A stretch of DNA of 64,000 nt from Candidatus Kapaibacteriota bacterium (GCA_046595995.1 JBKJNB010000116.1:44744-108743), one strand, 5' to 3'. Shown: positions 2,007-59,189, numbered from the stretch's first letter. The notes: generated by a model from the letters alone, not told the origin. Program-made: numbers and translations.

Positions 2007-3782
2007 ATGAGTGTTGAAGTCGTCATGCCCAAAATGGGTGAATCCATTCAGGAAGGCAAAGTCCTCCGTTGGGTGAAAAACGTCGGCGACAAGATCGAGC
2101 GCGACGAAACATTGCTAGAAATTTCAACCGACAAGGTCGACACAGAAGTGCCGTCGCCAGTCGCCGGCACGATCCTGCAAATTCTAGTTGCAGAAAATGA
2201 TACGGTTGAGGTCGGTAAGGTTCTCGCAATCATTGGTGCGGACAACGAAGTTGTTGCACCTGCACCAGCCGCAGCACCAGCCGCAGCACCAGCCGCAGCA
2301 CCCGCCACAGCAACTGCACCGACTCCTGCACCTGCTCCGGCACAAGCTGCTGGCGGTAACGATATTGAGGTAGTTATGCCCAAGATGGGTGAGTCCATCC
2401 AGGAGGGCAAAGTGCTCCGTTGGGTGAAAAAGGTCGGCGATGCAGTCGAGCGCGACGAGACGCTCCTTGAAATTTCAACGGACAAAGTCGATACTGAAGT
2501 ACCTTCTCCGATTGCAGGTACACTGTCGGCAATACTTGCGAATGAAGGCGACGTTGTTGAAGTAGGAAAAGTCATTGCTCGAATCGCATCGGGTGCATCC
2601 GCACCGCAGACAGCACCAAGTGCAGCGCCCGTAGCGCCAAGTGCAGTGCCCGCGGTCGCGCAAGTGACAGCGCCTGTTACAAACGGCGCAGCGAAGGCGC
2701 AAGCACCGGCAGCTGTGGCGCAAGCACCGGCAGCTCTGGCGAATGCTGCAACGTCAAGCATTCCACGTACTTCTGGTTCGCGATTCTATTCGCCATTGGT
2801 GCGATCGATTGCAGCGGTCGAGGGACTCTCTGTCTCACACCTTGATGCAATTACAGGCACCGGTCTTGACGGACGCGTTACGAAAACTGACGTGATGTCG
2901 TATCTACAGGGTGCGCGGCCGACGGCGGCCCAGCCGCAGACCGCCCAAACAGCGTCGGCAACACCCCAGCCAGCCCAAGCGCCAGCCCCATCTGCGGGCG
3001 GCACGCCGACCGCAGCCCCTGCCCCGCAGGCATCGATAACCCCAACAGAATCTGGCTTTGTAGGCGATGCAGAACACGAAGTGATTCCGATGGATCGGAT
3101 TCGCCAGCTAACTGCTGAACACATGGTTCGCTCGAAGCAAACGTCGCCCCATGTTACAAGTGTGGCAGAGGCAGACGTTACTGGCATGGTTAAGCTGCGC
3201 GATAAGTCGAAAGACGACTTCCAGAAACGCGAAGGTTTTAAACTAACTTATAATCCGTTCTTTGGTGTTGCGGCAGCCGAAGCTGCAAAGCAGTATCCCC
3301 GTATAAATGTAAGCGTCGATGGAAAGAACATCATTCAACATCGTCGCGTTCATTTAGGCATGGCTACGGCACTTCCCGACGGGAACCTCATTGTGCCTGT
3401 GATAAAGAATGCAGACGTTTTGAATGTAACTGGCATGGCTCGCGCAATGAACGATCTCGCAAACCGGGCACGGACTAAGAAGCTGAAGCCAGATGATATT
3501 TCGGGTGGTACACTTACGGTGACGAATGTTGGTTCGTTTGGTTCGCTGTTCGGCACTCCAGTGATCAACCAACCTCAGACGGCCATCATTGGAATCGGTG
3601 CTATCAAAAAACGACCAGTCGTGAAAGAGGTTGACGGCGAAGACTTGGTTGTCGTCCGCCACATGGTATACGTCTCGATAACGTACGATCACCGCGTCAT
3701 TGACGGCTCACTCGCAACGCAGGCACTTGCCGCTATGGTAAAGTCGCTCGAAAGTATGAACGCTACTACGGTTGCTATTTAG
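2007..3782 (+). CDS. Dihydrolipoyllysine-residue acyltransferase (E2 of a 2-oxoacid dehydrogenase complex) with two lipoyl domains
   Basis: Two copies of VVMPKMGESIQEGKVLRWVK...ISTDKVDTEVPSP (lipoyl-lysine motif), Ala/Pro linkers, a peripheral-subunit-binding domain and the catalytic motif DHRVIDG. The ATG at 2007 follows the sequence gaggag. The ORF track starts at 1812 but that start has no support. Confidence 0.9.
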   Translation: MSVEVVMPKMGESIQEGKVLRWVKNVGDKIERDETLLEISTDKVDTEVPSPVAGTILQILVAENDTVEVGKVLAIIGADNEVVAPAPAAAPAAAPAAAPATATAPTPAPAPAQAAGGNDIEVVMPKMGESIQEGKVLRWVKKVGDAVERDETLLEISTDKVDTEVPSPIAGTLSAILANEGDVVEVGKVIARIASGASAPQTAPSAAPVAPSAVPAVAQVTAPVTNGAAKAQAPAAVAQAPAALANAATSSIPRTSGSRFYSPLVRSIAAVEGLSVSHLDAITGTGLDGRVTKTDVMSYLQGARPTAAQPQTAQTASATPQPAQAPAPSAGGTPTAAPAPQASITPTESGFVGDAEHEVIPMDRIRQLTAEHMVRSKQTSPHVTSVAEADVTGMVKLRDKSKDDFQKREGFKLTYNPFFGVAAAEAAKQYPRINVSVDGKNIIQHRRVHLGMATALPDGNLIVPVIKNADVLNVTGMARAMNDLANRARTKKLKPDDISGGTLTVTNVGSFGSLFGTPVINQPQTAIIGIGAIKKRPVVKEVDGEDLVVVRHMVYVSITYDHRVIDGSLATQALAAMVKSLESMNATTVAI

Positions 3783-4236
3783 CAGCCGTTGCCGGATTCT
3801 CACGTTCGAGCACGATCGTTACAGGTCCGTCGTTGATTAACGCAACATCCATCATAGCCCCAAACGTTCCGGTTGAAACGTTTGGGGTTTTCTTTTTCAA
3901 CATTTGGATAAAGTGAATGTACAGGGGCTCTGCAATATCAGGTGATGCGGCCTTGACGAATGATGGACGTGTTCCGCGGCTGGCATCGGCGTACAAGGTG
4001 AACTGTGAGACGACAAGTATCTCGCCGCCGATGTCGGTTACTGCCTCGTTCATGCGTCCGTCGCTGTCGGGAAATACTCGCAATGCCAGCACCTTTTCCG
4101 ACATCCATTCAGCCTGAGCTGTTGTGTCGGCGTGAGTGACGCCTAACAGAACGACAAGTCCCTTGCCAATAGAAGCAGTGACCGCGCCGTCGATGGTAAC
4201 CGACGCGCGACTTACGCGCTGCACAACAGCCTTCAT
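3775..4236 (-). CDS. dtd: D-aminoacyl-tRNA deacylase
   Basis: MKAVVQRVSRASVTIDGAVTASIGKGLVVLLGV...SQFTL.AD...G.RPSF matches Dtd. Its 3' end overlaps the E2 3' end convergently by 8 nt. Confidence 0.85.
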   Translation of the reverse strand: MKAVVQRVSRASVTIDGAVTASIGKGLVVLLGVTHADTTAQAEWMSEKVLALRVFPDSDGRMNEAVTDIGGEILVVSQFTLYADASRGTRPSFVKAASPDIAEPLYIHFIQMLKKKTPNVSTGTFGAMMDVALINDGPVTIVLERENPATAAK

Positions 4237-4280
4237 GCACTGCACCTTCGTATTTTTAGAGATTCAATACCGGGACTGTT

Positions 4281-5120
4281 ATGACAGATGAGGTGCGTGA
4301 GATTATCGGCAAAGAAATAGTATGTCTGGACAAAGGGTTCGTCCGACTGATAGACGTCATGGGCGACGACGCTGCCATTGTTCAGGCGGCGCGCGTGTCC
4401 TATGGCTCGGGCACGAAGAAAGTCCACGAAGACCGGGGCCTGATTCGATATCTCATGCGACATCTGCACACCACACCGTTTGAAATGGTAGAGTTCAAGT
4501 TTCATGTGAAGCTACCAATCTTCGTTGCACGTCAATGGATACGGCATCGCGCTGCGAATGTAAACGAATACAGCGGGCGGTATTCTGAGATGAAGGATGA
4601 ATTCTATGTACCGGCGCCCGACCAACTGCGCACTCAAAGCGAAGTAAACAAACAAGGACGTTCCGACAATGCTTTGCCATTAGAAGTGAGCAGAGAGATT
4701 GCCGAACGCATGCAATCCTTTCAACAAATCGCCTATGAAGACTACCGCACGTCGCTCGACACCGGTCTTGCACGAGAATTAGCGCGCATCAATTTGCCGG
4801 TCTCAAACTACACCGAATGGTATTGGAAAATCGATCTTCATAACCTTTTCCACTTTCTTCGCTTGCGCATCGATCCTCACGCACAGCATGAGATCCGTGT
4901 TTACGGTGAAGCAATGGCCCAAATGGTGAAAGCCGCTGTGCCACTTGCATACGAGGCGTTTGAAGACTACATCCTGCATGCAGCCCGATTCTCTCGTAAC
5001 GAAATTGCCGCTCTCAGGTCGATGATCAGTGCACTGCCTACCGATGAAGCTGCTTTTGAGCCGTTTGGAATCAAAGGCAGGGAAGCACGCGAGTTTCTCG
5101 ACAAAATGCAAGCGCTGTAA
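4281..5120 (+). CDS. thyX: FAD-dependent thymidylate synthase
   Basis: Carries the ThyX signature RHR (...ARQWIRHRAANVNEYSGRY...) over a ThyX-typical length. Confidence 0.9.
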   Translation: MTDEVREIIGKEIVCLDKGFVRLIDVMGDDAAIVQAARVSYGSGTKKVHEDRGLIRYLMRHLHTTPFEMVEFKFHVKLPIFVARQWIRHRAANVNEYSGRYSEMKDEFYVPAPDQLRTQSEVNKQGRSDNALPLEVSREIAERMQSFQQIAYEDYRTSLDTGLARELARINLPVSNYTEWYWKIDLHNLFHFLRLRIDPHAQHEIRVYGEAMAQMVKAAVPLAYEAFEDYILHAARFSRNEIAALRSMISALPTDEAAFEPFGIKGREAREFLDKMQAL

Positions 5121-5146
5121 TCTTGTCCCACTTCCAACATGTATCC

Positions 5147-6163
5147 ATGTTGCTCAGTCTCCTGTTAGGGGGCTGTTTTGCCGTGGGCTGCACGTCAGAT
5201 TCTATCGTTCCTGAGCCAGCCTTTCCAATCATCCCAGCACACCTCCCTAGCGTACCGGTTCCAACAGACAACCCGATGACACCCGAAAAGGTTGAGCTCG
5301 GCAGACATCTATTCTACGACAAGAACCTTTCGCGCGATGCCAGCATAGCGTGTGCATCGTGTCATCGGCAGGAGGCAGCATTCAGCGATGGACCGAACAT
5401 GGTGAGCGTGGGCGTAAATCAGGCACGTGGTCAGCGCAACTCACCATCGATTGTAAACGCAGCGTATCGCCGCACCCAGTTCTGGGACGGACGTGCTGCA
5501 ACGCTGGAAGATCAGGCCATGGGCGCGTTTACACATCCCGTCGAAATGTTTGCAGACACCGTTGCTGTGGCCGAGCATATCCGTACAACCTATGCGGATC
5601 GTTGGTTGCTGGTATTTGGTGATTTAGCTGTGACGATGCGCAGGGCAATGCAAGCAATTGCGACATTCGAGCGTACGCTCATCTCCGCAGATAGCCGCTA
5701 CGATCGATTCATCACCGGCGATGCGAGAGCGCTTACCACACAAGAACAAATGGGGATGCGGTTATTCTTCAGTGACCGCACCATGTGTTCGTCTTGCCAT
5801 AGCGGACCGGACTTAACGGACGACGAGTACCATAACATTGGGCTGTTTCACCACTACTTCGATCGGGGCCGATATAACGTTACGAAAGTTGTCGACGACG
5901 AAGGGTTGTTTAGAACACCAACACTTCGCAACGTCGCCTTAACACCACCTTATATGGCAACAGGGGATAGCGAGGACGGTGTTATGGAGACGTTAGAACA
6001 GGTAATGAAGCATTATAACGGCGGTGGAACCAATTTCCCAAACAAGGATAAACGCGTTCGAAAGCTGGGACTTACGGATGCAGAGGTAGCTGCGGTTGTA
6101 GCCTTTATGCGTAGCCTGACAGACTCTTCTGTAATCAAGAATCGGAACTTCGGACCTCCTTAG
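5147..6163 (+). CDS. Di-haem cytochrome c peroxidase family lipoprotein
   Basis: Lipoprotein signal MLLSLLLGGC and two CxxCH motifs (CASCH, CSSCH), with CCP/MauG-like spacing. Confidence 0.8.
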   Translation: MLLSLLLGGCFAVGCTSDSIVPEPAFPIIPAHLPSVPVPTDNPMTPEKVELGRHLFYDKNLSRDASIACASCHRQEAAFSDGPNMVSVGVNQARGQRNSPSIVNAAYRRTQFWDGRAATLEDQAMGAFTHPVEMFADTVAVAEHIRTTYADRWLLVFGDLAVTMRRAMQAIATFERTLISADSRYDRFITGDARALTTQEQMGMRLFFSDRTMCSSCHSGPDLTDDEYHNIGLFHHYFDRGRYNVTKVVDDEGLFRTPTLRNVALTPPYMATGDSEDGVMETLEQVMKHYNGGGTNFPNKDKRVRKLGLTDAEVAAVVAFMRSLTDSSVIKNRNFGPP

Positions 6164-6269: not shown

Positions 6270-7301
6270 ATGGCAGTCAGGAAGAAGATACTCTTCGTTT
6301 GTGGGTCTATGAACCAGACCACAACGATGCATAAAATCTCTCGGTACCTTCCCGACCATGACCATTGGTTCACTCCCTGTTATACCGACGGCTTCCTGGG
6401 GATTCTTGAACGCAATCGCATGATTGAATGGACCGTCGCCGGTCTCGGCTTTCAGGAACGAGCGGTCGAGTACTGTAAAAAAAACGAGCTCCAGGTCGAT
6501 GTAGGTGGAGTACACAACGACTACGATCTCGTGATTACGTGTAGCGACATTGTCGTTCAGAAGAATATTCGCCACAAGCGTATTGTGCTTGTGCAGGAAG
6601 GCATGACCGATCCTGAAAACATCGCCTTTTATTTAGTGAAGTACCTCGGCCTGCCTCGCTATATCGCCTCGACCTCGACATTCGGAATGTCCGATGCGTA
6701 TGTGCGTTTCTGCGTAGCGTCGTCGGGCTATCGCGACCTTTTCGTTCGCAAGGGAGCACGATTCGAAAAGATGACAGTAACAGGGATTCCGAACTTCGAC
6801 AACTGTAAAGAGTTTCTTGATTTGCCCTTCGAGCACGAGGATTACGTACTCGTGGCCACGTCTGATTCTCGTGAGACATTCAAGCTCGAGAATCGTAAAA
6901 AATTCATCGAACACGCATTGCGTATTGCGGACGGACGCAAAACCATCTTCAAACTGCATCCGAACGAAAACATCGATCGCGCGCGTCGCGAAATAGACCG
7001 ATGGGCACCAAATGCACTGTTGTACTACAATTGCGATATCAACCGGATGATCGCCCACTGCGACACACTCGTCACTCGGTTCTCGACGGTTGTGTATGTT
7101 GGCATTGCGTTGAATAAGAAGGTCTACAGCGACTTCGACATCAATCTGCTCCGCGCCTGTTGTCCAGAACAAAATGGCGGTCACTCGGCCGAACGGATTG
7201 CAACGGTATGCGAAGAAGTGCTGGACCGTAAGGACGTCTTGATTCCTGTATCAGTAAGTTTTCAAAGCCCTGCATCGTGGCGCAAAGCAGTTCAAGCATG
7301 A
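6270..7301 (+). CDS. GT-B-fold UDP-sugar 2-epimerase/hydrolase superfamily protein (NeuC/PseG/SpsG-like, divergent)
   Basis: N-terminus KKILFVCGS....K resembles the 2-epimerase start K-I-L-T-V-F-G-T-R-P-E-A-I-K. The C-terminal block YVLVATSDSRE...IFKLHPNENIDRARREI matches the epimerase HPNP-type motif, but the DSGG motif is degenerate. First gene of the coupled operon. ATG at 6270 sits after agagga; the track start at 6171 is a TTG. Confidence 0.45.
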   Translation: MAVRKKILFVCGSMNQTTTMHKISRYLPDHDHWFTPCYTDGFLGILERNRMIEWTVAGLGFQERAVEYCKKNELQVDVGGVHNDYDLVITCSDIVVQKNIRHKRIVLVQEGMTDPENIAFYLVKYLGLPRYIASTSTFGMSDAYVRFCVASSGYRDLFVRKGARFEKMTVTGIPNFDNCKEFLDLPFEHEDYVLVATSDSRETFKLENRKKFIEHALRIADGRKTIFKLHPNENIDRARREIDRWAPNALLYYNCDINRMIAHCDTLVTRFSTVVYVGIALNKKVYSDFDINLLRACCPEQNGGHSAERIATVCEEVLDRKDVLIPVSVSFQSPASWRKAVQA

Positions 7302-8134
7302 ACATCGTTGTCGTTTGTCAGGCACGTCTCAGCTCTACCCGTTTACCGCGAAAAGTACTCCTCCCTTTATCAGGGAAGCCCCTTATCGCGCGCTTTATGG
7401 AAAGAGTACTCCGCTCACGGCTCGCATCGTCCGTTGTGGTGGCGACAACGACCGATGCTGTTGATGACGAACTGGCAACAGAGTGCGCGACGCGTGGATA
7501 CGAAGTGTTTAGGGGTCACCCTACCGACTTGCTTGACAGGCACTATCAAGCCGGTAAGCAATACGGCGCTGACGTCGTTGTAAAAATTCCCACGGATTGT
7601 CCACTAATCGACCCAGTCGTAATCGACAAGGTCATTGCCGCCTATCTGTCCAACCCGAATGACGTCGATTTCGTGAGCAACCTACACCCCGCATCCTACC
7701 CTGATGGCAATGACGTTGAAGTGATGACGATGGCCGCGCTTGAACTGGCGTGGACGCGCGCGTCGCGCGCGTTCGAACGTGAACATACTACGCCGTGGCT
7801 GTGGGACGCCAATCCTGCAGTACGGTGTTTGAATGTATCGTGGGACCACGACATAGACCTTAGTATGACACACCGTTGGACCATAGACTATCCCGAAGAC
7901 TATTTGTTTATCAACGCGGTGTACGAAGCATTGCTTCCGCATAACTCGCGCTTTCGCCTCGAAGATGTTCTTAGTTTGCTGCAGGAGCGTCCAGAGATAG
8001 CCGCACTCAACGCCCACCTCGCGGGGGTGAATTGGTATCGCGATCATCTTGGCGAATTACGGACGGTAACCACGAACGAAACACGACCCTTTCCAGCCCC
8101 ATCCCAATCCCAATCCCAATCCCAATCCGTATGA
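7298..8134 (+). CDS. Cytidylyltransferase, SpsF/acylneuraminate cytidylyltransferase family (CTP_transf_3)
   Basis: MNIVVVCQARLSSTRLPRKVL.PL.GKPLI...TDCPLIDP..ID.VI aligns closely with B. subtilis SpsF (IQARMGSTRLPGKVL...GDNPFVDP). It overlaps the upstream gene as ATGA. The 3' end carries an (SQ)4 tail from a hexanucleotide repeat. Confidence 0.8.
   Translation: MNIVVVCQARLSSTRLPRKVLLPLSGKPLIARFMERVLRSRLASSVVVATTTDAVDDELATECATRGYEVFRGHPTDLLDRHYQAGKQYGADVVVKIPTDCPLIDPVVIDKVIAAYLSNPNDVDFVSNLHPASYPDGNDVEVMTMAALELAWTRASRAFEREHTTPWLWDANPAVRCLNVSWDHDIDLSMTHRWTIDYPEDYLFINAVYEALLPHNSRFRLEDVLSLLQERPEIAALNAHLAGVNWYRDHLGELRTVTTNETRPFPAPSQSQSQSQSV
8098..8128 (+). repeat. Hexanucleotide simple sequence repeat (cccaat/atccca) x~5
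   Basis: The string ccccatcccaatcccaatcccaatcccaatcc lies directly at the cytidylyltransferase / transketolase-N junction. It encodes SQSQSQSQ in the upstream gene and PIPIPIPI in another frame. Confidence 0.9.
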
Positions 8135-8988
8135 ATCAACGTGAGTCCGACGAACTGAAGCGCATTGCGCTGCGTGTTCGCGAACACATTCTTCGCATGT
8201 CAACCGACGGTGGTTGTTTTACAGGAGCGTCGCTTTCGTGTGCAGATCTTTTGGTCTTCCTGTACTCGCGATTCCTCAATGTTTCGCCAGAAACGATTGC
8301 TTCTCCTGACAGGGATTACCTCTTGCTATCGAAGGGACACGACGTCCCGGCCTTGTATGGTGTGTTTGCCGAGCTCGGATTCCTCGACCCAGAGCGCCTG
8401 AAGAACCACCTAAAGACAAACGACCACATATACTGGCATCCCAACCGCGCCATACCTGGCGTAGAGTTTCATTCGGGCTCACTGGGCCATTTATTGTCGG
8501 TTTCGATTGGCATCGCCGCTGATATCAAGTTGCGCGAAGGAAGAAACAAAGTCGTTGTGGTGCTCGGTGATGGTGAACTCAACGAAGGCACGATATGGGA
8601 AGGCTGCCTGACTGCGAATGCGTGGAAGCTCGACAATCTGATTGCAGTGATCGATCGCAACTACTTCCAGGCCAACATTCGTACTGAAGAACTCATACCG
8701 CTGGAGCCGATAGTAGACAAGTTTAAAGCATTCGGGTGGAACGTGATGAGTGTCGATGGCCACGATTACAATGCTCTCGATGATGTCTTCTCGTCTTGGC
8801 AGCCCGATTCTGGCAACCCCACTGTGATTGTTGCTTCAACGCAGCGTGGACGAGGTGTTCCATCAATTGCAGAACGTGCTGATCGTTGGTTCTGCAATTT
8901 CACACATGCAGAAGTAGAGCAGCTCATCGGTGAACTACACGGAGAAACCGCGGCCGACCTAACATCAGAAACCTTGATTGTGCGCTAA
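8131..8988 (+). CDS. Transketolase, N-terminal (TPP-binding) subunit of a split transketolase
   Basis: Contains HSGSLGHLLSVSIGIA...VVVVLGDGELNEGTIWEG (TPP-binding GDG...NEG motif). At about 285 aa it is of COG3959 type. It overlaps the upstream gene as ATGA. Confidence 0.85.
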   Translation: MNQRESDELKRIALRVREHILRMSTDGGCFTGASLSCADLLVFLYSRFLNVSPETIASPDRDYLLLSKGHDVPALYGVFAELGFLDPERLKNHLKTNDHIYWHPNRAIPGVEFHSGSLGHLLSVSIGIAADIKLREGRNKVVVVLGDGELNEGTIWEGCLTANAWKLDNLIAVIDRNYFQANIRTEELIPLEPIVDKFKAFGWNVMSVDGHDYNALDDVFSSWQPDSGNPTVIVASTQRGRGVPSIAERADRWFCNFTHAEVEQLIGELHGETAADLTSETLIVR

Positions 8989-9941
8989 TGAACCGCTACG
9001 AAGAACTCTTACTCGACCTTGTAAATACTGATGAACGCATCGTTGTACTCACAGCAGAGAACCGTGGTCACATGCGTACGTTGCCGACCCATCTTGGCAA
9101 GCGTTTCATGGATGTCGGCATTGCCGAGCAGACAATGATTGGTGTTGCTGCTGGTCTCGCATTGCGCGGACGCATCGTCCTTACACATGCCCTTGCGTGC
9201 TTTATTACGTTGCGTCCATTCGAGTTCATACGCGACGACGTAGGCATCCCCAATCTTCCAGTGATCATGGTCGGTATGGTGCCTGGTTTCCTTTCGGATG
9301 GGAATGGGCCAACGCACCAGGCCATTGATGATGTTGCGTTGATGCGCGGCATCCCCAACGTAGGCGTGTTCTGTCCGGCAGACGAAGATGACTTCATTAT
9401 CGGCATGCGCGACATCATTCTAAGTGGCAAGCCGTTTTACGTCCGTTACATCAACACGCCCGCTTACGTCGAACACGACAAGACTTTCGAGATTGGTAAA
9501 GCCGAAATTGTGAAGGGGCCTAAGAAGGGGCAGCGTGACGTTACCATCCTCACGTACGGACTCCTCTTAAAACAATCTGTGCAGGCAGCGGAGATTCTTG
9601 AATCGCATGGACTTGTCGTGCAAGTAGTGAACATGCGGACACTCAAGCCAGTGGACACCGACGCGATACTCGACGCTGCTCGAAGCAGCTCGCTTGTCGT
9701 TACGGTAGAAGATCACTTTAAGAACGGTGGGCTGTACTCGATTCTTGCCGATACCGTCCTCGACCGTGCAACACCATGCGCGGCACTGGCAATTGCGCTC
9801 GAGGAACGATGGTTCCGGCCAGCACTTCTCAACGATGTACTTGAATTCGAAGGTTTCACTGGCGAACAGATTGCTGTGCGTATTCAACGCGCACTTGAGC
9901 TTCAACCAAAGGACTCGTATGCCGAACTCCGTTTCTCTTAA
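8988..9941 (+). CDS. Transketolase, C-terminal (pyrimidine-binding/C-domain) subunit
   Basis: FMDVGIAEQTMIGVAAGLALRG...PGFLSDGNGPTHQAIDDVALMRGIPN is of COG3958 type. Its start overlaps the preceding stop (TAATG). Confidence 0.85.
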   Translation: MNRYEELLLDLVNTDERIVVLTAENRGHMRTLPTHLGKRFMDVGIAEQTMIGVAAGLALRGRIVLTHALACFITLRPFEFIRDDVGIPNLPVIMVGMVPGFLSDGNGPTHQAIDDVALMRGIPNVGVFCPADEDDFIIGMRDIILSGKPFYVRYINTPAYVEHDKTFEIGKAEIVKGPKKGQRDVTILTYGLLLKQSVQAAEILESHGLVVQVVNMRTLKPVDTDAILDAARSSSLVVTVEDHFKNGGLYSILADTVLDRATPCAALAIALEERWFRPALLNDVLEFEGFTGEQIAVRIQRALELQPKDSYAELRFS

Positions 9942-11271
9942 TCAAGACTATCCGGTTATTCACGAGTCTACAGCTCTGCTTCAGAGAGCAGAGGGCGGAG
10001 GCTTCATCCCATGCGCCACGCAGACGTTGGCCAAGGGTCCGGCTCAGAATGTTCGCGGCGTCGCTCCCGTTTATTTGCGGCGAGGCAAAGGCAGTCATGT
10101 TTGGGATGTAGATAATAACGAATACATCGACTACACAATGGGTGTAGGTCCGCTCTCACTGGGCTACGCTTTCGATGTTGTAGACGATGCAATTCGTGCG
10201 CAGCTCAACGATGGTATAACATTCTCCCTCATGCATCCATTGGAAGTTGAAGTCGCAGAGCTCATCCGCGAAGTCGTTCCGAACGTAGAGAGTGTGCGCT
10301 ACAGTAAGACAGGTTGTGATGTAACGACTGCAGCGGTTCGTCTTGCGCGCGCATACACGGGCAAGAACACGATTCTCTGCTGTGGCTACCATGGGTGGCA
10401 CGACTGGTACATCGGTGTTACCGATCGCAACAGAGGAGTACCAGAAGCGGTGCGCGGTCTTACCTATACGTTTAACTACAACGATATTGACAGCGTGTTG
10501 CAATCCATCGACGACGACACGGCCGCCATTATCCTAGAGCCAGTTGTTTTCGATCAGCCGAACGATGACTTCTTGCACGCACTCAGAAACGTGTGCGATG
10601 AGAAGGGCATACTCCTCATTTTCGACGAGATGTGGACGGGCTTTCGACTGGCGTTAGGTGGTGCTCAGGAGTATTTCGGCGTCCGTGCGGACCTCGCGTG
10701 CTTCTCTAAAGCCGTTGCCAATGGCATGCCGCTGAGCATACTATGCGGTCGTGCGGATGTCATGGCACTGCTTGAACACGATGTCTTTTTCTTCACGACA
10801 TTTGGCGGGGAAGCACTGTCACTCGCTGCCGCAAAGGCAACGATTAACTTCATGCGAGACAACGATGTCGTGGGCAAGCTTGCTACGAACGGTGCTAAAC
10901 TACGGGACGGATACAATGCAATAGCTGCAGAGTATGGCATCACATACACGCGTGCTAAGGGTTATCCATGTCGCAGCATTGTGGTGTTCGACGCATCGGC
11001 AGGAGACCCGTTGCTCATGAAGTCATATGTTCAGCAGGAAATGATTCGGCGCGGTATACTTTGGGGTGGCTTTCACAACATGTCGTATTCGCACACTGAC
11101 GCCGATATCGCACACACGCTTAGTGCTTATCGAGAAGTGCTACCGCTTCTCAAAGCGGCGGTAGAATCTGACTCGCTTCGCGCAGTTCTCCGCGGTGACG
11201 CTGTGGATGCGGTCTTCCGCAAAACCAGCAACTTCAACACGAAGCCCAAACGCAAAGGCGTATCCGCATGA
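9919..11271 (+). CDS. Class-III aminotransferase, glutamate-1-semialdehyde aminomutase (HemL)-like
   Basis: IPCATQTLAKGPAQNVRGVAPVYLRRGKGSHVWDVDNNEYIDY..GVGPLSLGY parallels the HemL N-terminus, with a PLP-fold length of about 450 aa. The only in-frame ATG before the conserved block is at 9919; the ORF track starts at 9727. Confidence 0.8.
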   Translation: MPNSVSLNQDYPVIHESTALLQRAEGGGFIPCATQTLAKGPAQNVRGVAPVYLRRGKGSHVWDVDNNEYIDYTMGVGPLSLGYAFDVVDDAIRAQLNDGITFSLMHPLEVEVAELIREVVPNVESVRYSKTGCDVTTAAVRLARAYTGKNTILCCGYHGWHDWYIGVTDRNRGVPEAVRGLTYTFNYNDIDSVLQSIDDDTAAIILEPVVFDQPNDDFLHALRNVCDEKGILLIFDEMWTGFRLALGGAQEYFGVRADLACFSKAVANGMPLSILCGRADVMALLEHDVFFFTTFGGEALSLAAAKATINFMRDNDVVGKLATNGAKLRDGYNAIAAEYGITYTRAKGYPCRSIVVFDASAGDPLLMKSYVQQEMIRRGILWGGFHNMSYSHTDADIAHTLSAYREVLPLLKAAVESDSLRAVLRGDAVDAVFRKTSNFNTKPKRKGVSA

Positions 11272-12080
11272 GTGTACTCGACCTATTTCGTCTGGATGGC
11301 AAAGTTGCAGTGGTAACAGGTGCAGCCGGACTGATCGGCACGCACCACTGTCAGGCGCTCGCCGATGCAGGCGCAATCGTCGTTGCATGTGATCTTGATG
11401 CGGGGGCTGCCGCGGACGTTGCGTCCACTCTAGGACCACCGCATCTCGGCAGGGGGCTCGACGTGACGAATCCTGGCTCATTGACTGCACTACGTGATGA
11501 GTTACTTCAACAGTATGGCGCCATCGACATCTTAGTGAATAACGCTGCTATCAATGACATGGTCGAAAGCCCAGCACTTGCCGCGGAACTATCAAAGTTT
11601 GAGAACTACCCACTTACGTTATGGAAACGTGTCTTAGATGTCAACGTTACTGGCGTCTATCTCTGTTGCCAGGTATTCGGTACTGTGATGGCCGAAGGTC
11701 GATCGGGCAGTATTGTAAACATTGCATCTACCTATGGTGTTGTTGCTCCCGATCAATCGATCTATCGCACACCCGACGGTGAGCAGCCGTTCTTTAAGAG
11801 TGCGGCGTATCCTGCGAGCAAAGGTGCTGTTGTGATGCTTACAAAATTCCTTGCGACATACTGGGGTAGCAAAGGCGTCCGAGTAAACACGTTATCTCCC
11901 GGCGGCGTTGAGAACAACCAGGCAGCACATTTCATCGAAAACTACTCTGCGAAAACGCCCCTTGGCCGCATGGCGGCCCCTTCCGACTACATGGGTGCAC
12001 TTGTCTTTCTTGCGAGCGATGCGTCGGCGTATATGACTGGACACAATCTACTTGTCGATGGCGGCTGGACCGCCTGGTAA
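11268..12080 (+). CDS. Classical short-chain dehydrogenase/reductase (FabG/PtmA-like)
   Basis: GKVAVVTGAAGLIG Rossmann motif, about 270 aa, with a C-terminus like ...NNAAIND....Y..SK.A. ATGA-coupled to the aminotransferase. Confidence 0.85.
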   Translation: MSVLDLFRLDGKVAVVTGAAGLIGTHHCQALADAGAIVVACDLDAGAAADVASTLGPPHLGRGLDVTNPGSLTALRDELLQQYGAIDILVNNAAINDMVESPALAAELSKFENYPLTLWKRVLDVNVTGVYLCCQVFGTVMAEGRSGSIVNIASTYGVVAPDQSIYRTPDGEQPFFKSAAYPASKGAVVMLTKFLATYWGSKGVRVNTLSPGGVENNQAAHFIENYSAKTPLGRMAAPSDYMGALVFLASDASAYMTGHNLLVDGGWTAW

Positions 12081-12109
12081 AAACAATTTCACTACTCAAG
12101 GCCACGAAC

Positions 12110-13012
12110 ATGAGCGACCGCATTGTCTCAGTAGGAAAACGCGCGATTGGCGATGGCCACCCAACGTACGTAATCGCTGAAATTGGCATCAACCACAATG
12201 GTTCGATCGACGTAGCCAAGCAGATGATTGCTGGTGCCGTAGAGGCCGGTGCCGATTGTGTGAAGTTTCAGAAGCGCACACCTGAGATGTGTGTGCCTCG
12301 CGATCAGTGGTTAATTGAACGTGATACGCCGTGGGGACGTATGACGTACATCGATTATCGATACAAAGTGGAATTCACTGCAGAACAGTACGCAGATATC
12401 GACAGGTATTGTAAGGCAAACTCAATTGACTGGACGGTCTCTTGTTGGGATGAAGGTGCAGTAGACTTCATGGAAGAGCACTTCAGCGTTCCGTTCTATA
12501 AGGCGGCGTCGGCATCGCTCACAGACCTGCCTCTTCTGCAACGCATGCAGGCATCTGGTAAGGCTCTAGTCATCTCGACTGGCATGTCGACGATGGATGA
12601 GATTACTCACGCAATCGACGCGCTCGACCGCGATCGCTTGCTCATAGCTCACGCAACGTCTACTTATCCATGTCCACCGGAAGAACTCAATCTTCGCATG
12701 ATCACGACACTGCGCGATCTGTATCCTGACATTCCAATAGGTTATTCGGGACACGAAACGGGTCTCGCAACGACGTGCGCTACAATTGCACTTGGCGCTG
12801 CCTTCATCGAGCGCCATATAACCCTCGACCGTGCGATGTGGGGAACTGACCAAGCAGCAAGTGTCGAGCTCGGCGGGCTATTACGTCTAGTACGAGATGT
12901 TCGTGACATCGAAACTGCGTTGGGTGATGGAATAAAGCGTGTCTATGACAGCGAAATGAGCTCGCGGACGAAGCTTCGTCGCGTACGCTCAACGAACGGC
13001 ATTCAGGCTTAA
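12110..13012 (+). CDS. NeuB/SpsE-family sialic-acid-type synthase (PEP-condensing TIM barrel) lacking the C-terminal SAF domain
   Basis: HPTYVIAEIGINHNGSIDVAKQMI is the NeuB-family N-terminal signature. At 300 aa it ends before where the antifreeze-like SAF domain normally lies. Confidence 0.85.
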   Translation: MSDRIVSVGKRAIGDGHPTYVIAEIGINHNGSIDVAKQMIAGAVEAGADCVKFQKRTPEMCVPRDQWLIERDTPWGRMTYIDYRYKVEFTAEQYADIDRYCKANSIDWTVSCWDEGAVDFMEEHFSVPFYKAASASLTDLPLLQRMQASGKALVISTGMSTMDEITHAIDALDRDRLLIAHATSTYPCPPEELNLRMITTLRDLYPDIPIGYSGHETGLATTCATIALGAAFIERHITLDRAMWGTDQAASVELGGLLRLVRDVRDIETALGDGIKRVYDSEMSSRTKLRRVRSTNGIQA

Positions 13013-13013
13013 C

Positions 13014-13841
13014 ATGATTGATTGGCTGACCAATGTATACGTGCAGAGTCCACTCACCTGGTGGACTTCATTCATCGTCGGTCTAGCTGCAGTACTTTTT
13101 GTTGTACTTGAACGCATAATCCCTTACACGAAGGGTCAGCGGTTACTTCGCGATGGTCTGATTAGCGATTTCTTCTGGTACTCTATCGTCCAGAATTATG
13201 TACTCGGTCTAGTGATTTTTGGTGCTATCGCGTACATCGATGAATTCACATCCATCGAACGGTGGACAGCCATTCGCAGTCTACCGATCGCAATGCAGTT
13301 GTTGATCGCCTTTGTCGTGCATGACTTCTACATTTACTGGTTTCATCGGTTTCAGCATGGTAGTCGCATATTCTGGCGCATTCACGAAGCGCATCACTCT
13401 ACGAGAGACGTCGACTGGCTCAGTGGCTCGCGATCACACTCACTGGAGATTCTAATTAACCAGACGGTAGAATTTGCGCCAATTGTTTTGTTGGCATCGC
13501 CGGAAGTCGCCATTCTTAAAGGTTGCGTCGATGCCGTATGGGGCATGTACATTCATTCAAACATTGACGTCCGATCAGGTGTGTTGCAGTATGTAATCAA
13601 TGGACCTGAAATGCATCGATGGCACCACGCAACGGACGACGATGCACACAACAAGAACTACTCTACGAAGCTTGCCATATGGGACTGGATGTTCGGTACT
13701 GCATACTTACCCCGTCGGCGTAAGCCGGAGGCATTCGGACTGGGCGATGAATTCCCGCGAAACTATTTCATGCAGCACGTCTACGCATTTCGAAAGTTTG
13801 AAGATGACGGAAACGCGAACGCTGCAAAATCCGGATCCTGA
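13014..13841 (+). CDS. Integral-membrane fatty acid hydroxylase / sterol desaturase superfamily di-iron enzyme
   Basis: His boxes HDFYIYWFHRFQH, HEAHHS and HRWHHATDDD, plus N-terminal TM helices. It starts 1 nt after the NeuB-like stop. Confidence 0.8.
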   Translation: MIDWLTNVYVQSPLTWWTSFIVGLAAVLFVVLERIIPYTKGQRLLRDGLISDFFWYSIVQNYVLGLVIFGAIAYIDEFTSIERWTAIRSLPIAMQLLIAFVVHDFYIYWFHRFQHGSRIFWRIHEAHHSTRDVDWLSGSRSHSLEILINQTVEFAPIVLLASPEVAILKGCVDAVWGMYIHSNIDVRSGVLQYVINGPEMHRWHHATDDDAHNKNYSTKLAIWDWMFGTAYLPRRRKPEAFGLGDEFPRNYFMQHVYAFRKFEDDGNANAAKSGS

Positions 13842-19396: not shown

Positions 19397-19465
19397 ATTG
19401 CGTAGTAACATATTTTGCGGGCATAGGTCGAGTCACCATCGACTTCTGCCCGTTTCTTTTTGAGG

Positions 19466-21946
19466 ATGACAATTATGAGCCGTTGGAACCAATGTATTCA
19501 ATCGACGAAGCTGTTCACGGTATTTGCAATCATAATGCTTGTGTTTGCAGTCGTGGATTCAAGCGCACGTGAGTTCGGCATAACTGGACTTTCGCAGGGC
19601 GGTTGCGGTGGTGGATTCTGCCACGGTGGCCAATCTGGAGCAACGACCGTAGCACTGATCGGCCCTCGAGATGTTGCTCCTGGCGCTCTGGTCAATTATA
19701 CCTTTACAGTCGCGCACGCGGCGAACAACTTCTCTGGATTTAATGTTTCGTTGGTCAATGGTGCCGGCGGCGCAGCCGGTACGCTCGCTGCTGGAGCGAA
19801 CTCGCACGTCGAGAATAATCAGCTGACGCACAATGCACCCACGGCAGATGGTGCCGGTGGGGCGGCCGAATTTCCCTTTACGTGGATGGCTCCGGTAGAC
19901 CATGGTGTTTACACGTTTTATGGCGCAGGTAACGCAGTAAATAATAATGGCAATGCCGATGGTGGCGATGTGCACAACCTTACCGGTGGTATTGCAATCA
20001 CCGTGAAAGGCGCGACAATCACGGCCCCTGGTGGAGGAACGTTTTGTCGAGGCACGAACCTGACCATCAACTGGACGCAAACAGGTTTTCAGAACTTTAG
20101 AATTGAATTGTCAAACAACAACTTTACCACAAGTCAAGTTCTAACAAACTCGGTTGCAGCCACTGCAAACACGTTCATCTGGGCAATTCCGACAACGCAG
20201 GACGTGAGCACATCGTACGCGATACGACTCGTAAATACTGCGGACGGACAGGAAGTAAAGCGGTCGAACACGTTTACGATCAAGGGCCCGCCGACCATCA
20301 CTACACAACCACAAAGTCAGCTTGTGTGCGAAGGCCGAACGCTGCAGTTGACGGTATCCTCTGACTTTGGCGCTGCCACCTTTCAGTGGCGAAAGGACGG
20401 TGCCCTAATTCCTGGCGCAACGGCTTCCGCGTACCAAGTAGGCGTTGCGAAGGCTGCAGATGCTGGCTCCTATGATGTTCAGGTCTTCGGTTGCAACGGC
20501 ACCTCAACCTCTAACGCTGCTGAAGTAACCATTGGATTGCGACCGAAAATCACGCTTCAGCCAACAGGCAAAAACGTTTGTGAAAACGACTCAGTCTCAC
20601 TCTTTGCCGATGGAGATGGTGCGGGTGCCACCTATCAGTGGTATCGCAACGGTTCAATCATGCCAGGTAAGAACACCAAGACTCTGCGATTCGCTTTAAT
20701 TCTACTTGCTGACGAAGCGTCGTACTCGCTGCATGTATCCGGCACCTGTTTGCCCGACGCAGTTTCTAACGAAGCCATTGTCAACGTAATTGAGCGTCCC
20801 GCTGTGACTGTTCAGCCCACAGACAAAAACCTAAAAGTGGGCGATACGCTCACGTTGAATGTAGACGGATACGGCGAAGGAATTACGTACCAGTGGAAGA
20901 AGAACGGTGCCGTCATTCCTGGCGCAACCCAAAAGATATACCGTAAGACAGGTATCGTGCGTGCTGATTCTGGACAATACGAGGCTGTAATCACAAATCA
21001 GTGCGGCACCGTAACATCACGTAAGGCAGTTGTTCGCATCGTACCAGCAGATGGTCCAGGGCTGCCAGAACTGGCTTCAGCGACACTCGAACTGGGTACA
21101 ATTCCAATGTGCGCACGCATCGATACAACGCTTGCAGGCTTGCTGAAGAATGCTGGCGGAAGTGCGCTTACGGTTACGTCCATCTCGGCCGATCCACCGT
21201 CATTGCTCATGGCACAAGGGTCTGCTACGCCGTATGTCCTCGCACCTGGTGCCGGTTCAGATCTACAACTGATTGTAACGCCAACTGCAATGGGTACAAT
21301 TACAGGTACAGTAACCTTCTTTACTTCAAACGGCAGCGCTGTCTTCCAGGTAAATGGCATTGCAGAGGCAGGTGTCTCCGTCAACCAGGACACCCTGATG
21401 TTCCTAGAAGGCGCGGCAGACTTCAGTCGCTGCGTGTCTCTATCGCTCGACGCTCGTTGTAGCACTGCAACGGTAACGCAGGCACGGCTTGAAGGCGTTG
21501 GTGCTGGCAGCTATCGTGTTTTAAATACATTGCCAGGCATGGTTGTCGCGGGTACACCTCTTGAAATTTGTGTACAAACAACCTCTGGTTCGGGCGGCGA
21601 TGCCTCGGTAGTTATCGAGACATCTGCGGGCCCACGTACAGTGCAGCTTCGTCGCGGAGTCTTCTCGTCGGTCGAGAATGCGGACGTGGCAGTAATTAGT
21701 ATCCACCCTAACCCAGCGAATGAAGGTGTATCGATAAGGGGGCTTCCACAAGGGGCTTCAATACGCATCTTATCGCTTCAGGGTGCTGAGGTAACCAACC
21801 TTACACTTACAGGGAGCACGGTTGCAACGGAGCTCATGTGGGACGGCCGTGACGCAAGTGGTGTACCTGTCTCATCCGGCAGGTATGTCATTGCAGTTAG
21901 CGCTAACCACACTGTGTCAGTATATACGCTAATCATTGCTCGGTAA
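19466..21946 (+). CDS. Secreted protein with repeated Ig-like (I-set-like) domains and a T9SS C-terminal sorting domain
   Basis: Signal peptide. At least four repeats of the type TFQWRKDGALIPGATASAYQV....ADAGSYDVQVFGCNG..SNAAEVTI, also seen as YQWYRNGSIMPG... and YQWKKNGAVIPG.... The C-terminus IHPNPANEGVSIRGL...SGRYVIAV...YTLIIAR matches a Por_Secre_tail. The ATG at 19466 lies downstream of the track's TTG at 19460. Confidence 0.8.
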   Translation: MTIMSRWNQCIQSTKLFTVFAIIMLVFAVVDSSAREFGITGLSQGGCGGGFCHGGQSGATTVALIGPRDVAPGALVNYTFTVAHAANNFSGFNVSLVNGAGGAAGTLAAGANSHVENNQLTHNAPTADGAGGAAEFPFTWMAPVDHGVYTFYGAGNAVNNNGNADGGDVHNLTGGIAITVKGATITAPGGGTFCRGTNLTINWTQTGFQNFRIELSNNNFTTSQVLTNSVAATANTFIWAIPTTQDVSTSYAIRLVNTADGQEVKRSNTFTIKGPPTITTQPQSQLVCEGRTLQLTVSSDFGAATFQWRKDGALIPGATASAYQVGVAKAADAGSYDVQVFGCNGTSTSNAAEVTIGLRPKITLQPTGKNVCENDSVSLFADGDGAGATYQWYRNGSIMPGKNTKTLRFALILLADEASYSLHVSGTCLPDAVSNEAIVNVIERPAVTVQPTDKNLKVGDTLTLNVDGYGEGITYQWKKNGAVIPGATQKIYRKTGIVRADSGQYEAVITNQCGTVTSRKAVVRIVPADGPGLPELASATLELGTIPMCARIDTTLAGLLKNAGGSALTVTSISADPPSLLMAQGSATPYVLAPGAGSDLQLIVTPTAMGTITGTVTFFTSNGSAVFQVNGIAEAGVSVNQDTLMFLEGAADFSRCVSLSLDARCSTATVTQARLEGVGAGSYRVLNTLPGMVVAGTPLEICVQTTSGSGGDASVVIETSAGPRTVQLRRGVFSSVENADVAVISIHPNPANEGVSIRGLPQGASIRILSLQGAEVTNLTLTGSTVATELMWDGRDASGVPVSSGRYVIAVSANHTVSVYTLIIAR

Positions 21947-44061: not shown

Positions 44062-45042
44062 ATGAGTTCTTCTATGGATAACACCATCCTCGTTCACGCA
44101 CGACAAGCACTGCAGTGGCAGATCCGAAGCTTGGATAAGTTCGGCCCCCAGCTTGACGACAACTACTTGGCCGCGGTGGCGGCGCTTGCAACCGCCGGTA
44201 AGGTGCTCACGACAGGCCTGGGCAAGTCGGGCTTTATTGCCCGGAAAATGGCCGCAACCCTCACCAGCGTGCGGATTCCCGGGATTTTCCTTCACCCTGT
44301 AGAAGCGATGCACGGTGACAGTGGAATCCTGAATGCGAACGATTGCCTCGTAGCATTTTCGAAAAGTGGCGAAACCGCAGAAGTAGTTCAACTGTGCAAC
44401 TTGGCCAAGGATGTTGGCGCGTCGATCGTAGCTGTTACCGCTCGTGCAAACAGCTCACTTTCGCGAATTGCACACATAACACTCTTTACGCCCCTTGAAC
44501 GCGAGCTTGACCCCGACGACATCCTTCCGACAGCAAGCACGACGACGGCGTTGGTTGCTGCCGATCTCTTGGCTGTGGGCGCAGCGATGATGTCGGGTGA
44601 TGTTAGCGGACGTCTGCAACACTCACACCCACGGGGGATGATTGGTGTGGCAATGATGCGTTCTGTAGAGGATGTGATGCATTCAGGCGAAGGACTGCCC
44701 GTTGTGCAACCCGGTGCGATGTTAGTTGAAGCGCTAGCTCAACTTTCAGCCAAAGCGCTCGGAATTGTGTGTGTGGTTGACGAGCACGGCTTGCTCAAGG
44801 GCATCCTGACGGACGGAGACGTCCGACGCATTGTCATCGAGAACGCCAGCTCACTTGCAACCCTACGTATAGAAGACGTGATGATATCGACTCCTGTAAC
44901 GATCGAACCCTCCGCCACGCTGCATACAGCGCTACAGCAGATGGAGCGTCGTGAGAAGCAGATAAGTGTGCTCCCAGTCACGGTCGCTGGTCGCTGTGTG
45001 GGAGTACTCCGTCTGCACGACATAGTGCGCTTACAGGTCTAG
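44062..45042 (+). CDS. Arabinose-5-phosphate isomerase (KpsF/GutQ/KdsD family: SIS + tandem CBS)
   Basis: SIS motif VLTTGLGKSGFIARKMAATL and two CBS domains at the C-terminus. Confidence 0.85.
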   Translation: MSSSMDNTILVHARQALQWQIRSLDKFGPQLDDNYLAAVAALATAGKVLTTGLGKSGFIARKMAATLTSVRIPGIFLHPVEAMHGDSGILNANDCLVAFSKSGETAEVVQLCNLAKDVGASIVAVTARANSSLSRIAHITLFTPLERELDPDDILPTASTTTALVAADLLAVGAAMMSGDVSGRLQHSHPRGMIGVAMMRSVEDVMHSGEGLPVVQPGAMLVEALAQLSAKALGIVCVVDEHGLLKGILTDGDVRRIVIENASSLATLRIEDVMISTPVTIEPSATLHTALQQMERREKQISVLPVTVAGRCVGVLRLHDIVRLQV

Positions 45043-59108: not shown

Positions 59109-59189
59109 GCCAAACGCCTAAGAAAACGGTATCTTACTTCAATGCGGCAAAGATATAGCTGCCTCCTACTGAACGTTATTGGTGATTCT

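Follow-up and report, generated by a model that had tools for sequence, protein, structure and literature searches.

The window analysed here, a stretch of 64,000 nucleotides from a Candidatus Kapaibacteriota bacterium, harbors an operon of eight genes on the plus strand (6270-13841). The last of these genes encodes a putative hydroxylase, which is the only membrane protein of the operon. The genes are the following:

6270-7301, plus strand: GT-B-fold protein, first gene of the operon, 343 amino acids, no Pfam match
7298-8134, plus strand: cytidylyltransferase of the NeuA/KdsB type (Pfam CTP_transf_3, 92 bits)
8131-8988, plus strand: N-terminal (ThDP-binding) subunit of a split transketolase (Pfam Transketolase_N, 97 bits)
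8988-9941, plus strand: C-terminal (pyrimidine-binding) subunit of the split transketolase (Pfam Transket_pyr and Transketolase_C)
about 9919-11271, plus strand, start codon uncertain: class III (GSA-aminomutase-like) aminotransferase (Pfam Aminotran_3, 158 bits)
11268-12080, plus strand: classical SDR oxidoreductase (Pfam adh_short_C2, 165 bits)
12110-13012, plus strand: short NeuB-family synthase, 300 amino acids, no SAF domain (Pfam NeuB, 238.8 bits)
13014-13841, plus strand: putative OlsE-like membrane di-iron oxygenase of the FA_hydroxylase superfamily, terminal gene of the operon (Pfam, NCBIfam, alignment and structure model)

The genes are packed tightly. At six of the seven junctions the stop codon of one gene overlaps or abuts the start codon of the next; only the NeuB gene is preceded by a longer gap, of 29 nt. 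The cytidylyltransferase starts in an ATGA overlap with the preceding GT-B gene, and the N-terminal transketolase subunit overlaps the cytidylyltransferase stop by 4 nt. The NeuB-like reading frame ends with a TAA at 13010-13012, followed by a single base (C, 13013) and the ATG of the hydroxylase at 13014, so that the spacing of 1 nt given in the original prediction is correct. The term soluble sugar-nucleotide operon, used there for the upstream genes, is also a fair one, given a cytidylyltransferase, a split transketolase, a class III aminotransferase, an SDR and a NeuB protein joined by overlapping or nearly abutting junctions. A promoter of its own had been named as the finding that would speak against a link of the hydroxylase to these genes. 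The 1-nt gap leaves no room for one, and no promoter-like site was found inside the NeuB gene in a sigma-70 consensus scan, which stayed at background and is uninformative for an organism of the FCB group. The hydroxylase gene is probably co-transcribed with the preceding gene and translationally coupled to it. Downstream, secA converges on the operon past a spacer of 154 nt. This spacer has no significant fold (z -0.67) and the scan for a terminator consensus stayed at background level, both of which are again uninformative for an FCB-group organism.

The GT-B protein is either a TagF-like transferase that uses a CMP- or CDP-linked donor or a NeuC-like hydrolase/epimerase. The cytidylyltransferase, which presumably makes the CMP-activated sugar acid, has its best PDB match in 6oew, annotated 'Cytidylyltransferase' (1.9e-35), followed by KdsB. 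The tail of its gene contains a (CCCAAT)x5 repeat at 8097-8128. For the C-terminal transketolase subunit, the best PDB match is the split transketolase 6yaj. The aminotransferase scores 377 bits against the NCBIfam model PRK06209, under the cut-off of 486, and its neighbours in the PDB include GSA aminomutases, an aminopentol aminotransferase, sugar C-6' aminotransferases and the mycosubtilin AMT domain. The best NCBIfam matches of the SDR are gluconate 5-dehydrogenase and KduD-like proteins, all under cut-off. By Pfam the NeuB-like protein consists of the NeuB domain only and lacks the SAF domain of the canonical N-acetylneuraminate and pseudaminate synthases. It stays below the equivalog cut-offs of both NeuB (TIGR03569, 236 bits vs 400) and PseI (TIGR03586, 183 bits vs 340), and its best PDB matches are SpsE (1vli) and the short NeuB 6ncs. 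The short NeuB would condense PEP with an aldose or an aldose phosphate.

The terminal reading frame starts with ATG and encodes 275 amino acids. The original prediction had placed the protein in the fatty acid hydroxylase family, and this assignment is upheld by a match to Pfam FA_hydroxylase (PF04116) that covers the whole model (positions 2-132 of 132) with 105.1 bits, the gathering score being 31. The known membrane di-iron hydroxylases of the family take part in the metabolism of fatty acids, sphingolipids, sterols, carotenoids and ornithine lipids. No cytochrome b5 or other additional domain was found, FA_hydroxylase being the only Pfam match. The protein carries three histidine boxes, each of which is invariant in 27 homologues:

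13344-13358, plus strand: His box 1, HRFQH (H111-H115)
13383-13397, plus strand: His box 2, HEAHH (H124-H128)
13614-13628, plus strand: His box 3, HRWHH (H201-H205)

Boxes 2 and 3 have the form that had been predicted, while box 1, described before as HxxxxH, is in fact HxxxH. In the alignment of the 27 homologues, which are 59-84% identical, the histidines H103, H111, H115, H124, H127, H128, H142, H181, H201, H204 and H205 are all invariant. The protein thus shows the histidine pattern of the superfamily, that is HX3-4H, HX2-3HH and HX2-3HH together with extra conserved histidines. The HX3H/HX2HH/HX2HH pattern itself is common to many PF04116 subfamilies and does not discriminate between them. 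Hydropathy analysis reveals four hydrophobic segments (residues about 12-40, 53-82, 84-110 and 143-176). The AlphaFold2 model is confident (pLDDT 85.6, pTM 0.83), its helices begin at residue 13 and its long helices coincide with the hydrophobic segments. The topology prediction that had been proposed as a check therefore gives four hydrophobic helices by both approaches. Like other members of the superfamily, the hydroxylase is embedded in the membrane by about four transmembrane helices and has an Scs7p-like fold. Taken by its sequence, it can be described as a four-helix membrane oxygenase of the FA_hydroxylase/sterol-desaturase superfamily with eight or more histidines, for which a di-iron centre and the corresponding activity are predicted. 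A sequence search of the PDB and a Foldseek search with the model both returned no match. Public annotations name the protein 'sterol desaturase family protein'. At a limit of E = 1e-3, 12,245 relatives were found among 1.84 billion cluster representatives. Just a few full-length 50%-identity representatives share at least 44% identity with the hydroxylase, and below these the identity falls to 30-40%, and therefore the hydroxylase forms a small, distinct subfamily. Homologues on plasmids are about 30% identical and lie in unrelated gene contexts.

By sequence comparison, the closest characterised relative of the hydroxylase is OlsE. This enzyme is the C4-hydroxylase of the ornithine lipid head group in Rhizobium tropici and Agrobacterium. 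The OlsE model (NF052566) is the sole NCBIfam match to the hydroxylase, even at E up to 10, and the alignment runs nearly end to end (residues 10-261 vs model positions 28-285 of 293). The score of 130 bits is, however, far from the equivalog cut-off of 475, and the cluster homologues L041, L161 and L045 score similarly with 121-122 bits. A Rhizobium protein found by tblastn served as positive control and reaches 544.5 bits. The hydroxylase shares 31% identity with this cut-off-passing OlsE over 257 amino acids, and the order of the boxes is identical. Since the equivalog cut-off is missed, the hydroxylase is not an OlsE equivalog, and we have rejected the assignment as a true OlsE orthologue on this ground and because it is encoded in a CMP-sugar-acid operon. 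Both proteins belong to the same superfamily, both have N-terminal helices followed by HX3H, HX2HH and HX2HH, and both are devoid of a fused redox domain. Unlike OlsE, the hydroxylase is not found in the context of ornithine-lipid genes and it belongs to a separate subfamily. OlsE hydroxylates C4 of the ornithine head group in ornithine lipid and not the acyl chain (PMC12971839). OlsE thus works at the membrane surface, on a polar head group, and we propose the same behaviour for the hydroxylase described here.

The resemblance to other hydroxylases is more distant. A comparison with FA2H had been suggested, but the likeness turned out to be weak. The ceramide fatty acid 2-hydroxylases Scs7p and FA2H (PDB 4zr0, 4zr1) share 13-15% identity with the protein, with no match at the level of sequence or in Foldseek. 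They carry a fused N-terminal cytochrome b5 that the hydroxylase with its 275 amino acids does not have, and for lack of this domain it cannot be called FA2H-like. The first box also has HX3H spacing and not the longer spacing that had been assumed. In functional terms, the closest analogies are KdoO, LpxO and CMAH, which carry out O2-dependent hydroxylation of a Kdo- or sialic-type sugar or of the adjacent lipid. These enzymes come from families that are unrelated to the hydroxylase (Fe/2-oxoglutarate dioxygenases and a Rieske protein), and none of their domains was detected by Pfam. In particular, CMAH is a soluble Rieske [2Fe-2S] protein, while the hydroxylase is predicted to be embedded in the membrane and has no Rieske domain by Pfam.

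With an alignment of the hydroxylase as query, we retrieved 80 loci from a set of genomes limited to one per species, and read the synteny by tblastn with all proteins of the window operon. Nearly all of these loci come from metagenome-assembled genomes of Ignavibacteria or Kapabacteria type, although some bin labels are evidently wrong. Of the 76 loci with upstream DNA, about 74 have the NeuB gene immediately before the hydroxylase, and the order of the eight genes is intact wherever the contig reaches. The spacing between the stop codon of NeuB and the start codon of the hydroxylase lies between -4 and +9 nt in 45 of 73 loci, with 3 nt being the commonest value. Two exceptions were observed. 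In L045 a hydroxylase copy of 59% identity sits off the cluster, beside a Flavin_Reduct gene and PEPCK, and in L024 no NeuB gene is found upstream but a divergent unknown gene. The transketolase pair is missing in four of the hydroxylase-seeded loci, and clusters with aminotransferase and hydroxylase that are devoid of the transketolase are L057, L067, L077, L080, L085, L088, L090 and L163. An extra gene is inserted between the SDR and the NeuB gene in 30 of the 80 loci. Its product passes the cut-off of the KdsC/YrbI phosphatase subfamily (141 bits vs 107), and the best equivalog is KDN-9-phosphate phosphatase. The functional tie of the hydroxylase to the sugar operon, for which co-conservation had been put forward as a check, is thus supported by the conserved neighbourhood, by the tight junctions and by the missing room for a promoter.

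The picture is different when the analysis is started from the synthase. A scan of metagenomes with an alignment of the cluster NeuB proteins yielded 80 loci with 46-69% identity, but among the 60 loci that extend at least 700 nt downstream no more than 10 contain the hydroxylase. The short NeuB is therefore widespread without the hydroxylase, homologues of 46-63% identity being common elsewhere. The genes for these hydroxylase-free homologues are part of capsule-type loci, together with a CTP_transf_3-HAD fusion and a KpsS-like transferase. An example is L113, which encodes GT2 enzymes, a GFO oxidoreductase, SDRs, a cytidylyltransferase-phosphatase fusion, NeuB and a Capsule_synth (KpsS-like) protein. 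When the NeuB-seeded loci are sorted by the aminotransferase, 11 have both the aminotransferase and the hydroxylase, none has one without the other, and 23 have neither; loci were counted as free of the aminotransferase when at least 3 kb upstream and at least 900 nt downstream were available. The association is strong (Fisher's exact p = 3.5e-9, not corrected for phylogeny). From this split of 11/11 versus 0/23 it follows that the hydroxylase belongs to the amino-sugar variant of the pathway and not to NeuB as such. The co-occurrence with NeuB, which had been proposed as a check, holds in one direction: the hydroxylase follows NeuB almost invariably in the genome loci, but the predictor of its presence is the class III aminotransferase. 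In a rearranged locus, L127, the hydroxylase gene lies 9 nt after the aminotransferase gene and the NeuB gene is found 2.4 kb further on, with the hydroxylase still in the cluster.

High-GC loci with hydroxylases of 46-51% identity form a sister clade, and the named members are metagenome-assembled genomes of Polyangia/Myxococcales. A Myxococcales contig of 1.8 Mb has the order LPG_synthase_TM, GT-B, cytidylyltransferase, TktN, TktC, aminotransferase, SDR, phosphatase, NeuB, hydroxylase. Together with L127, these Polyangia clusters indicate that the link of the hydroxylase spans at least two phyla and survives rearrangement. A known enzyme type is recruited into an uncharacterised, phylum-wide sugar-acid operon that reappears in myxobacteria. 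The flippase-like LPG_synthase_TM gene adjoins the cluster in five loci among the Polyangia versions (L161, L163, L127, L063 and L065). In L089 the gene after NeuB encodes an MMPL transporter, in L164 and L165 the hydroxylase gene is followed by one for a MacB-type ABC exporter, and some Kapabacteria have a Metallophos gene together with a MacB-type exporter gene behind the hydroxylase. Such neighbours are confined to certain lineages and do not occur in the window; they hint weakly at a membrane or lipid role.

A NeuB-family synthase, a phosphatase of the KdsC/KDN-9-P type and a cytidylyltransferase of the NeuA/KdsB type constitute the core of a pathway for the activation of 3-deoxy-ulosonic acids. 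Judged by its gene content, the operon should make a CMP-activated, probably aminated 3-deoxy-ulosonic acid that resembles sialic acid, Kdo or KDN. The SDR is similar to sugar-acid dehydrogenases, and sugar C-6' aminotransferases are among the relatives of the aminotransferase, so that it would be reasonable to assume that the sugar acid or its precursor is first oxidised and then aminated. The formation of 8-amino-Kdo offers an analogy for such a sequence. The operon shares with the sialic, KDN and legionaminic acid pathways (NeuC-NeuB-NeuA) the short NeuB, the cytidylyltransferase and a GT-B protein whose best structural match is NeuC. The KdsC/KDN-9-P-type phosphatase in many of the cluster genomes is reminiscent of the route by KDN-9-P synthase, phosphatase and CMP-KDN synthetase. 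However, there are distinct differences to these systems. NeuB and the cytidylyltransferase of the operon stay under every equivalog cut-off, the aminotransferase belongs to class III and not to the DegT type, the SDR is a classical one and not a 4,6-dehydratase, and no acetyltransferase is present. Furthermore, the operon adds an atypical split transketolase and a membrane hydroxylase to the sialic-type core, and we know of no characterised pathway with these two components. Full-text literature searches turned up no paper that links a sterol-desaturase-type gene with NeuB, transketolase, cytidylyltransferase or nonulosonic acids, and searches on LPS and lipids of Ignavibacterium yielded nothing relevant to the cluster. 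The window also encodes a KdsD-type arabinose-5-P isomerase. The ordinary Kdo route therefore probably coexists with the operon, and for this reason we do not regard the operon as a substitute for the Kdo pathway.

How might a membrane hydroxylase act together with soluble enzymes of sugar activation? We tentatively favor, with slightly less than an even chance, a role as a dedicated O2-dependent tailoring enzyme, which at the membrane would hydroxylate a lipid-anchored form of the amino sugar acid, either in its head group or right beside it. A lipid as the destination of the sugar, as suggested in the original prediction, is supported indirectly by the head-group activity of OlsE and by the LPG_synthase_TM neighbour of the Polyangia clusters. 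The soluble enzymes would build and activate the sugar acid, which would then be attached to a membrane-anchored acceptor. The hydroxylase would add a hydroxyl group using O2 and two electrons from a general donor, and its target would be the head group or the adjacent carbon, as in the case of OlsE on ornithine lipid. While the family, the architecture and the conserved operon position of the protein are observed directly, we infer its substrate, the hydroxylated position, the lipid anchoring and the electron donor. No gene of lipid synthesis (acyltransferase, Spt, OlsB/F) is found in the window operon, and no acyltransferase family was matched in a Pfam scan of about 45 larger open reading frames of the window. 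If the GT-B protein is a NeuC-like hydrolase, no gene of the operon attaches the sugar to anything. That the enzyme is instead a general membrane-lipid hydroxylase, be it an OlsE orthologue or a modifier of lipids in stress response, which owes its place next to the operon to history and plays no part in the sugar pathway, is in our view very unlikely. OlsE is indeed the best characterised match, and the gene was found off the cluster in the two exceptional loci mentioned above. Against this stand the low score on the OlsE model, the synteny with coupled junctions across Kapabacteria, Ignavibacteria and Polyangia, the perfect association with the aminotransferase branch among the NeuB-seeded loci and the fact that the gene stays in the cluster when this is rearranged. 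It would also seem unlikely that the hydroxylase modifies the sugar acid itself or one of its substituents, either before transfer or on a polyprenol- or LPS-linked glycan, for example by converting N-acetyl to N-glycolyl or by C-hydroxylation as an analogue of CMAH or KdoO. Such a function would fit to an operon that otherwise mirrors a nonulosonic acid pathway of the NeuC/NeuB/NeuA type, to the specific tie of the hydroxylase to the amino branch as the source of an N-substituent, and to OlsE as a precedent within the family for hydroxylation of a head group over an acyl chain. However, the cluster contains no N-acyltransferase, which bears on the N-glycolyl variant as well, the protein has no features of Rieske or 2-oxoglutarate-dependent dioxygenases but matches FA_hydroxylase alone, and to our knowledge all characterised PF04116 enzymes act on lipophilic substrates embedded in the membrane.

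The transketolase opens a further alternative. Compared to the human enzyme, all 68 cluster copies carry substitutions at the canonical residues for phosphate and acceptor binding: H416 is replaced by V, F or I, D424 by N, R474 by N, A, S or G, and S345 by H or A. The cofactor glutamate Glu366 (human numbering) is retained. In canonical transketolases, H416, D424, R474 and S345 bind the substrate phosphate and the acceptor hydroxyl, and their replacement suggests a non-phosphorylated acceptor. The hydroxylase might then act on a lipid aglycone that is made by the operon. The atypical transketolase would transfer a C2 ketol unit onto an aldehyde without phosphate, possibly a fatty one, and the aminotransferase would aminate the 2-ketone to give a 2-amino-1,3-diol, the pattern of a sphingoid base, without a serine palmitoyltransferase. 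The hydroxylase would work on the chain in the manner of Sur2 or FA2H, or it would make the hydroxyl group that receives the sugar acid. Cascades of transketolase and transaminase yield 2-amino-1,3-diols in vitro. An aminoglycosphingolipid of Chlorobium is reported to contain neuraminic acid. For the existence of this aminoglycosphingolipid, PMC11762602 cites Jensen 1991. This route would account for the hydrophobic residue in place of the histidine, for a hydroxylase that tracks the aminotransferase and not NeuB and directly follows it in the rearranged locus, and it would agree with aminotransferase relatives that accept long-chain substrates (aminopentol aminotransferase and the mycosubtilin AMT domain) and with the flippase-like and MMPL neighbours in some lineages. 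Yet the eight clusters listed above have the aminotransferase and the hydroxylase but lack the transketolase, no enzyme that forms a fatty aldehyde or N-acylates is encoded in the operon, the aminotransferase is most similar to soluble GSA aminomutases, the SDR resembles a sugar-acid dehydrogenase, and the loss of phosphate-binding residues is equally compatible with a free sugar as acceptor. We consider this route improbable, to a similar degree as direct tailoring of the sugar.

For the tailoring of a lipid-anchored conjugate, which we prefer, and in a wider sense for the cluster as a whole, the data point to an undescribed component of the cell envelope, a hydroxylated ulosonic-acid glycolipid or surface glycan, and provide the set of eight to ten genes for it, including a split transketolase without the residues that bind sugar phosphate. 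As a lipid or glycan biomarker, the product could help to trace Ignavibacteriota in sediments and wastewater, and it could widen the known chemistry of bacterial sialic-acid-like sugars. A bolder version, and a long shot at present, is that the operon makes a new class of membrane lipid in which an aminated sialic- or Kdo-like head group would be combined with an amino-alcohol backbone, maybe by an SPT-independent transketolase and transaminase route, with the di-iron enzyme installing the completing hydroxyl group. If true, this lipid class would be a signature of Ignavibacteriota and of some Polyangia, and it would possibly explain the old report on the Chlorobium lipid. The preferred hypothesis of a hydroxylated envelope component is directly testable, because cultivable relatives exist: a locus labelled Ignavibacterium album (L046) carries the cluster, and named homologues of the GT-B gene come from Melioribacter and Rosettibacter.

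The split transketolase of the operon was compared with 68 homologues in L001-L160, homologous loci from other genomes and metagenomes, and read against human transketolase. In every copy the canonical residues that bind the substrate phosphate and the acceptor are gone, His416 being replaced by Val, Phe or Ile, Asp424 by Asn, Arg474 by Asn, Ala, Ser or Gly, and Ser345 by His or Ala, while the cofactor glutamate (Glu366) is retained. These replacements suggest that the acceptor of this enzyme is non-phosphorylated. Directly before the 4-nt overlap of the cytidylyltransferase gene with the transketolase start, the hexanucleotide CCCAAT is repeated 5.3 times in tandem and in frame (window 8097-8128); the repeat encodes an SQSQSQSQ tail of the cytidylyltransferase.

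Window 44062-45042 encodes a SIS protein with two CBS domains that scores above the KpsF/GutQ subfamily cut-off (arabinose-5-phosphate isomerase), so that an ordinary route to Kdo is probably present beside the operon. A gene for a phosphatase of the KdsC/KDN-9-phosphate type lies between the SDR and NeuB genes in 30 of the 80 loci found with the hydroxylase alignment, and is absent from the window. The features concerned are:

Window 8131-8988 and 8988-9941 (+): split transketolase
L041 8455-9015: phosphatase inserted between SDR and NeuB, as in 29 other loci
L117 5455-6891: fusion of this phosphatase type with NeuB
L113 4729-5967: fusion of this phosphatase type with the cytidylyltransferase

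The surroundings of the cluster vary with lineage. The order thyX, MauG/MbnH-like di-haem peroxidase, operon is kept directly upstream in Kapabacteria-type loci and is not kept in Ignavibacteria-type loci. In Polyangia/Myxococcales versions an LPG_synthase_TM (MprF flippase-like) membrane protein directly adjoins the cluster. Some Kapabacteria relatives (L164, L165) carry a Metallophos phosphoesterase gene 3' of the hydroxylase with a 47-nt overlap, followed by a MacB-type ABC transporter (ABC_tran, FtsX/MacB_PCD), a membrane fusion protein and then secA; the window has no such insertion between hydroxylase and secA.

Window 4281-6163; also L004, L005, L007, L164, L165: thyX/peroxidase flank
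L161 1525-2646; L163 84-1070; L127 3563-4432; L065 1698-2630; L063 10991-11917: LPG_synthase_TM neighbour
L164 and L165, 10743-15839: Metallophos/MacB-type/membrane fusion protein insertion
Window 19460-21946, 39226-43977, 59034-60545: large secreted proteins

In L163 the cluster has no transketolase; between its cytidylyltransferase and aminotransferase lies an ATP-grasp ligase of the glutathione-synthetase/RimK type (3233-4279). L045 (8972-10816), from a high-GC MAG labelled Bacteroidota, encodes a 59% identical hydroxylase outside any sugar cluster, directly 3' of the gene for a Flavin_Reduct-domain protein, a candidate electron donor. Several large secreted proteins of the window bear either the Por_Secre_tail sorting domain of type IX secretion or Ig-like modules in repeats, which is consistent with an FCB-group (Kapabacteria-like) origin.
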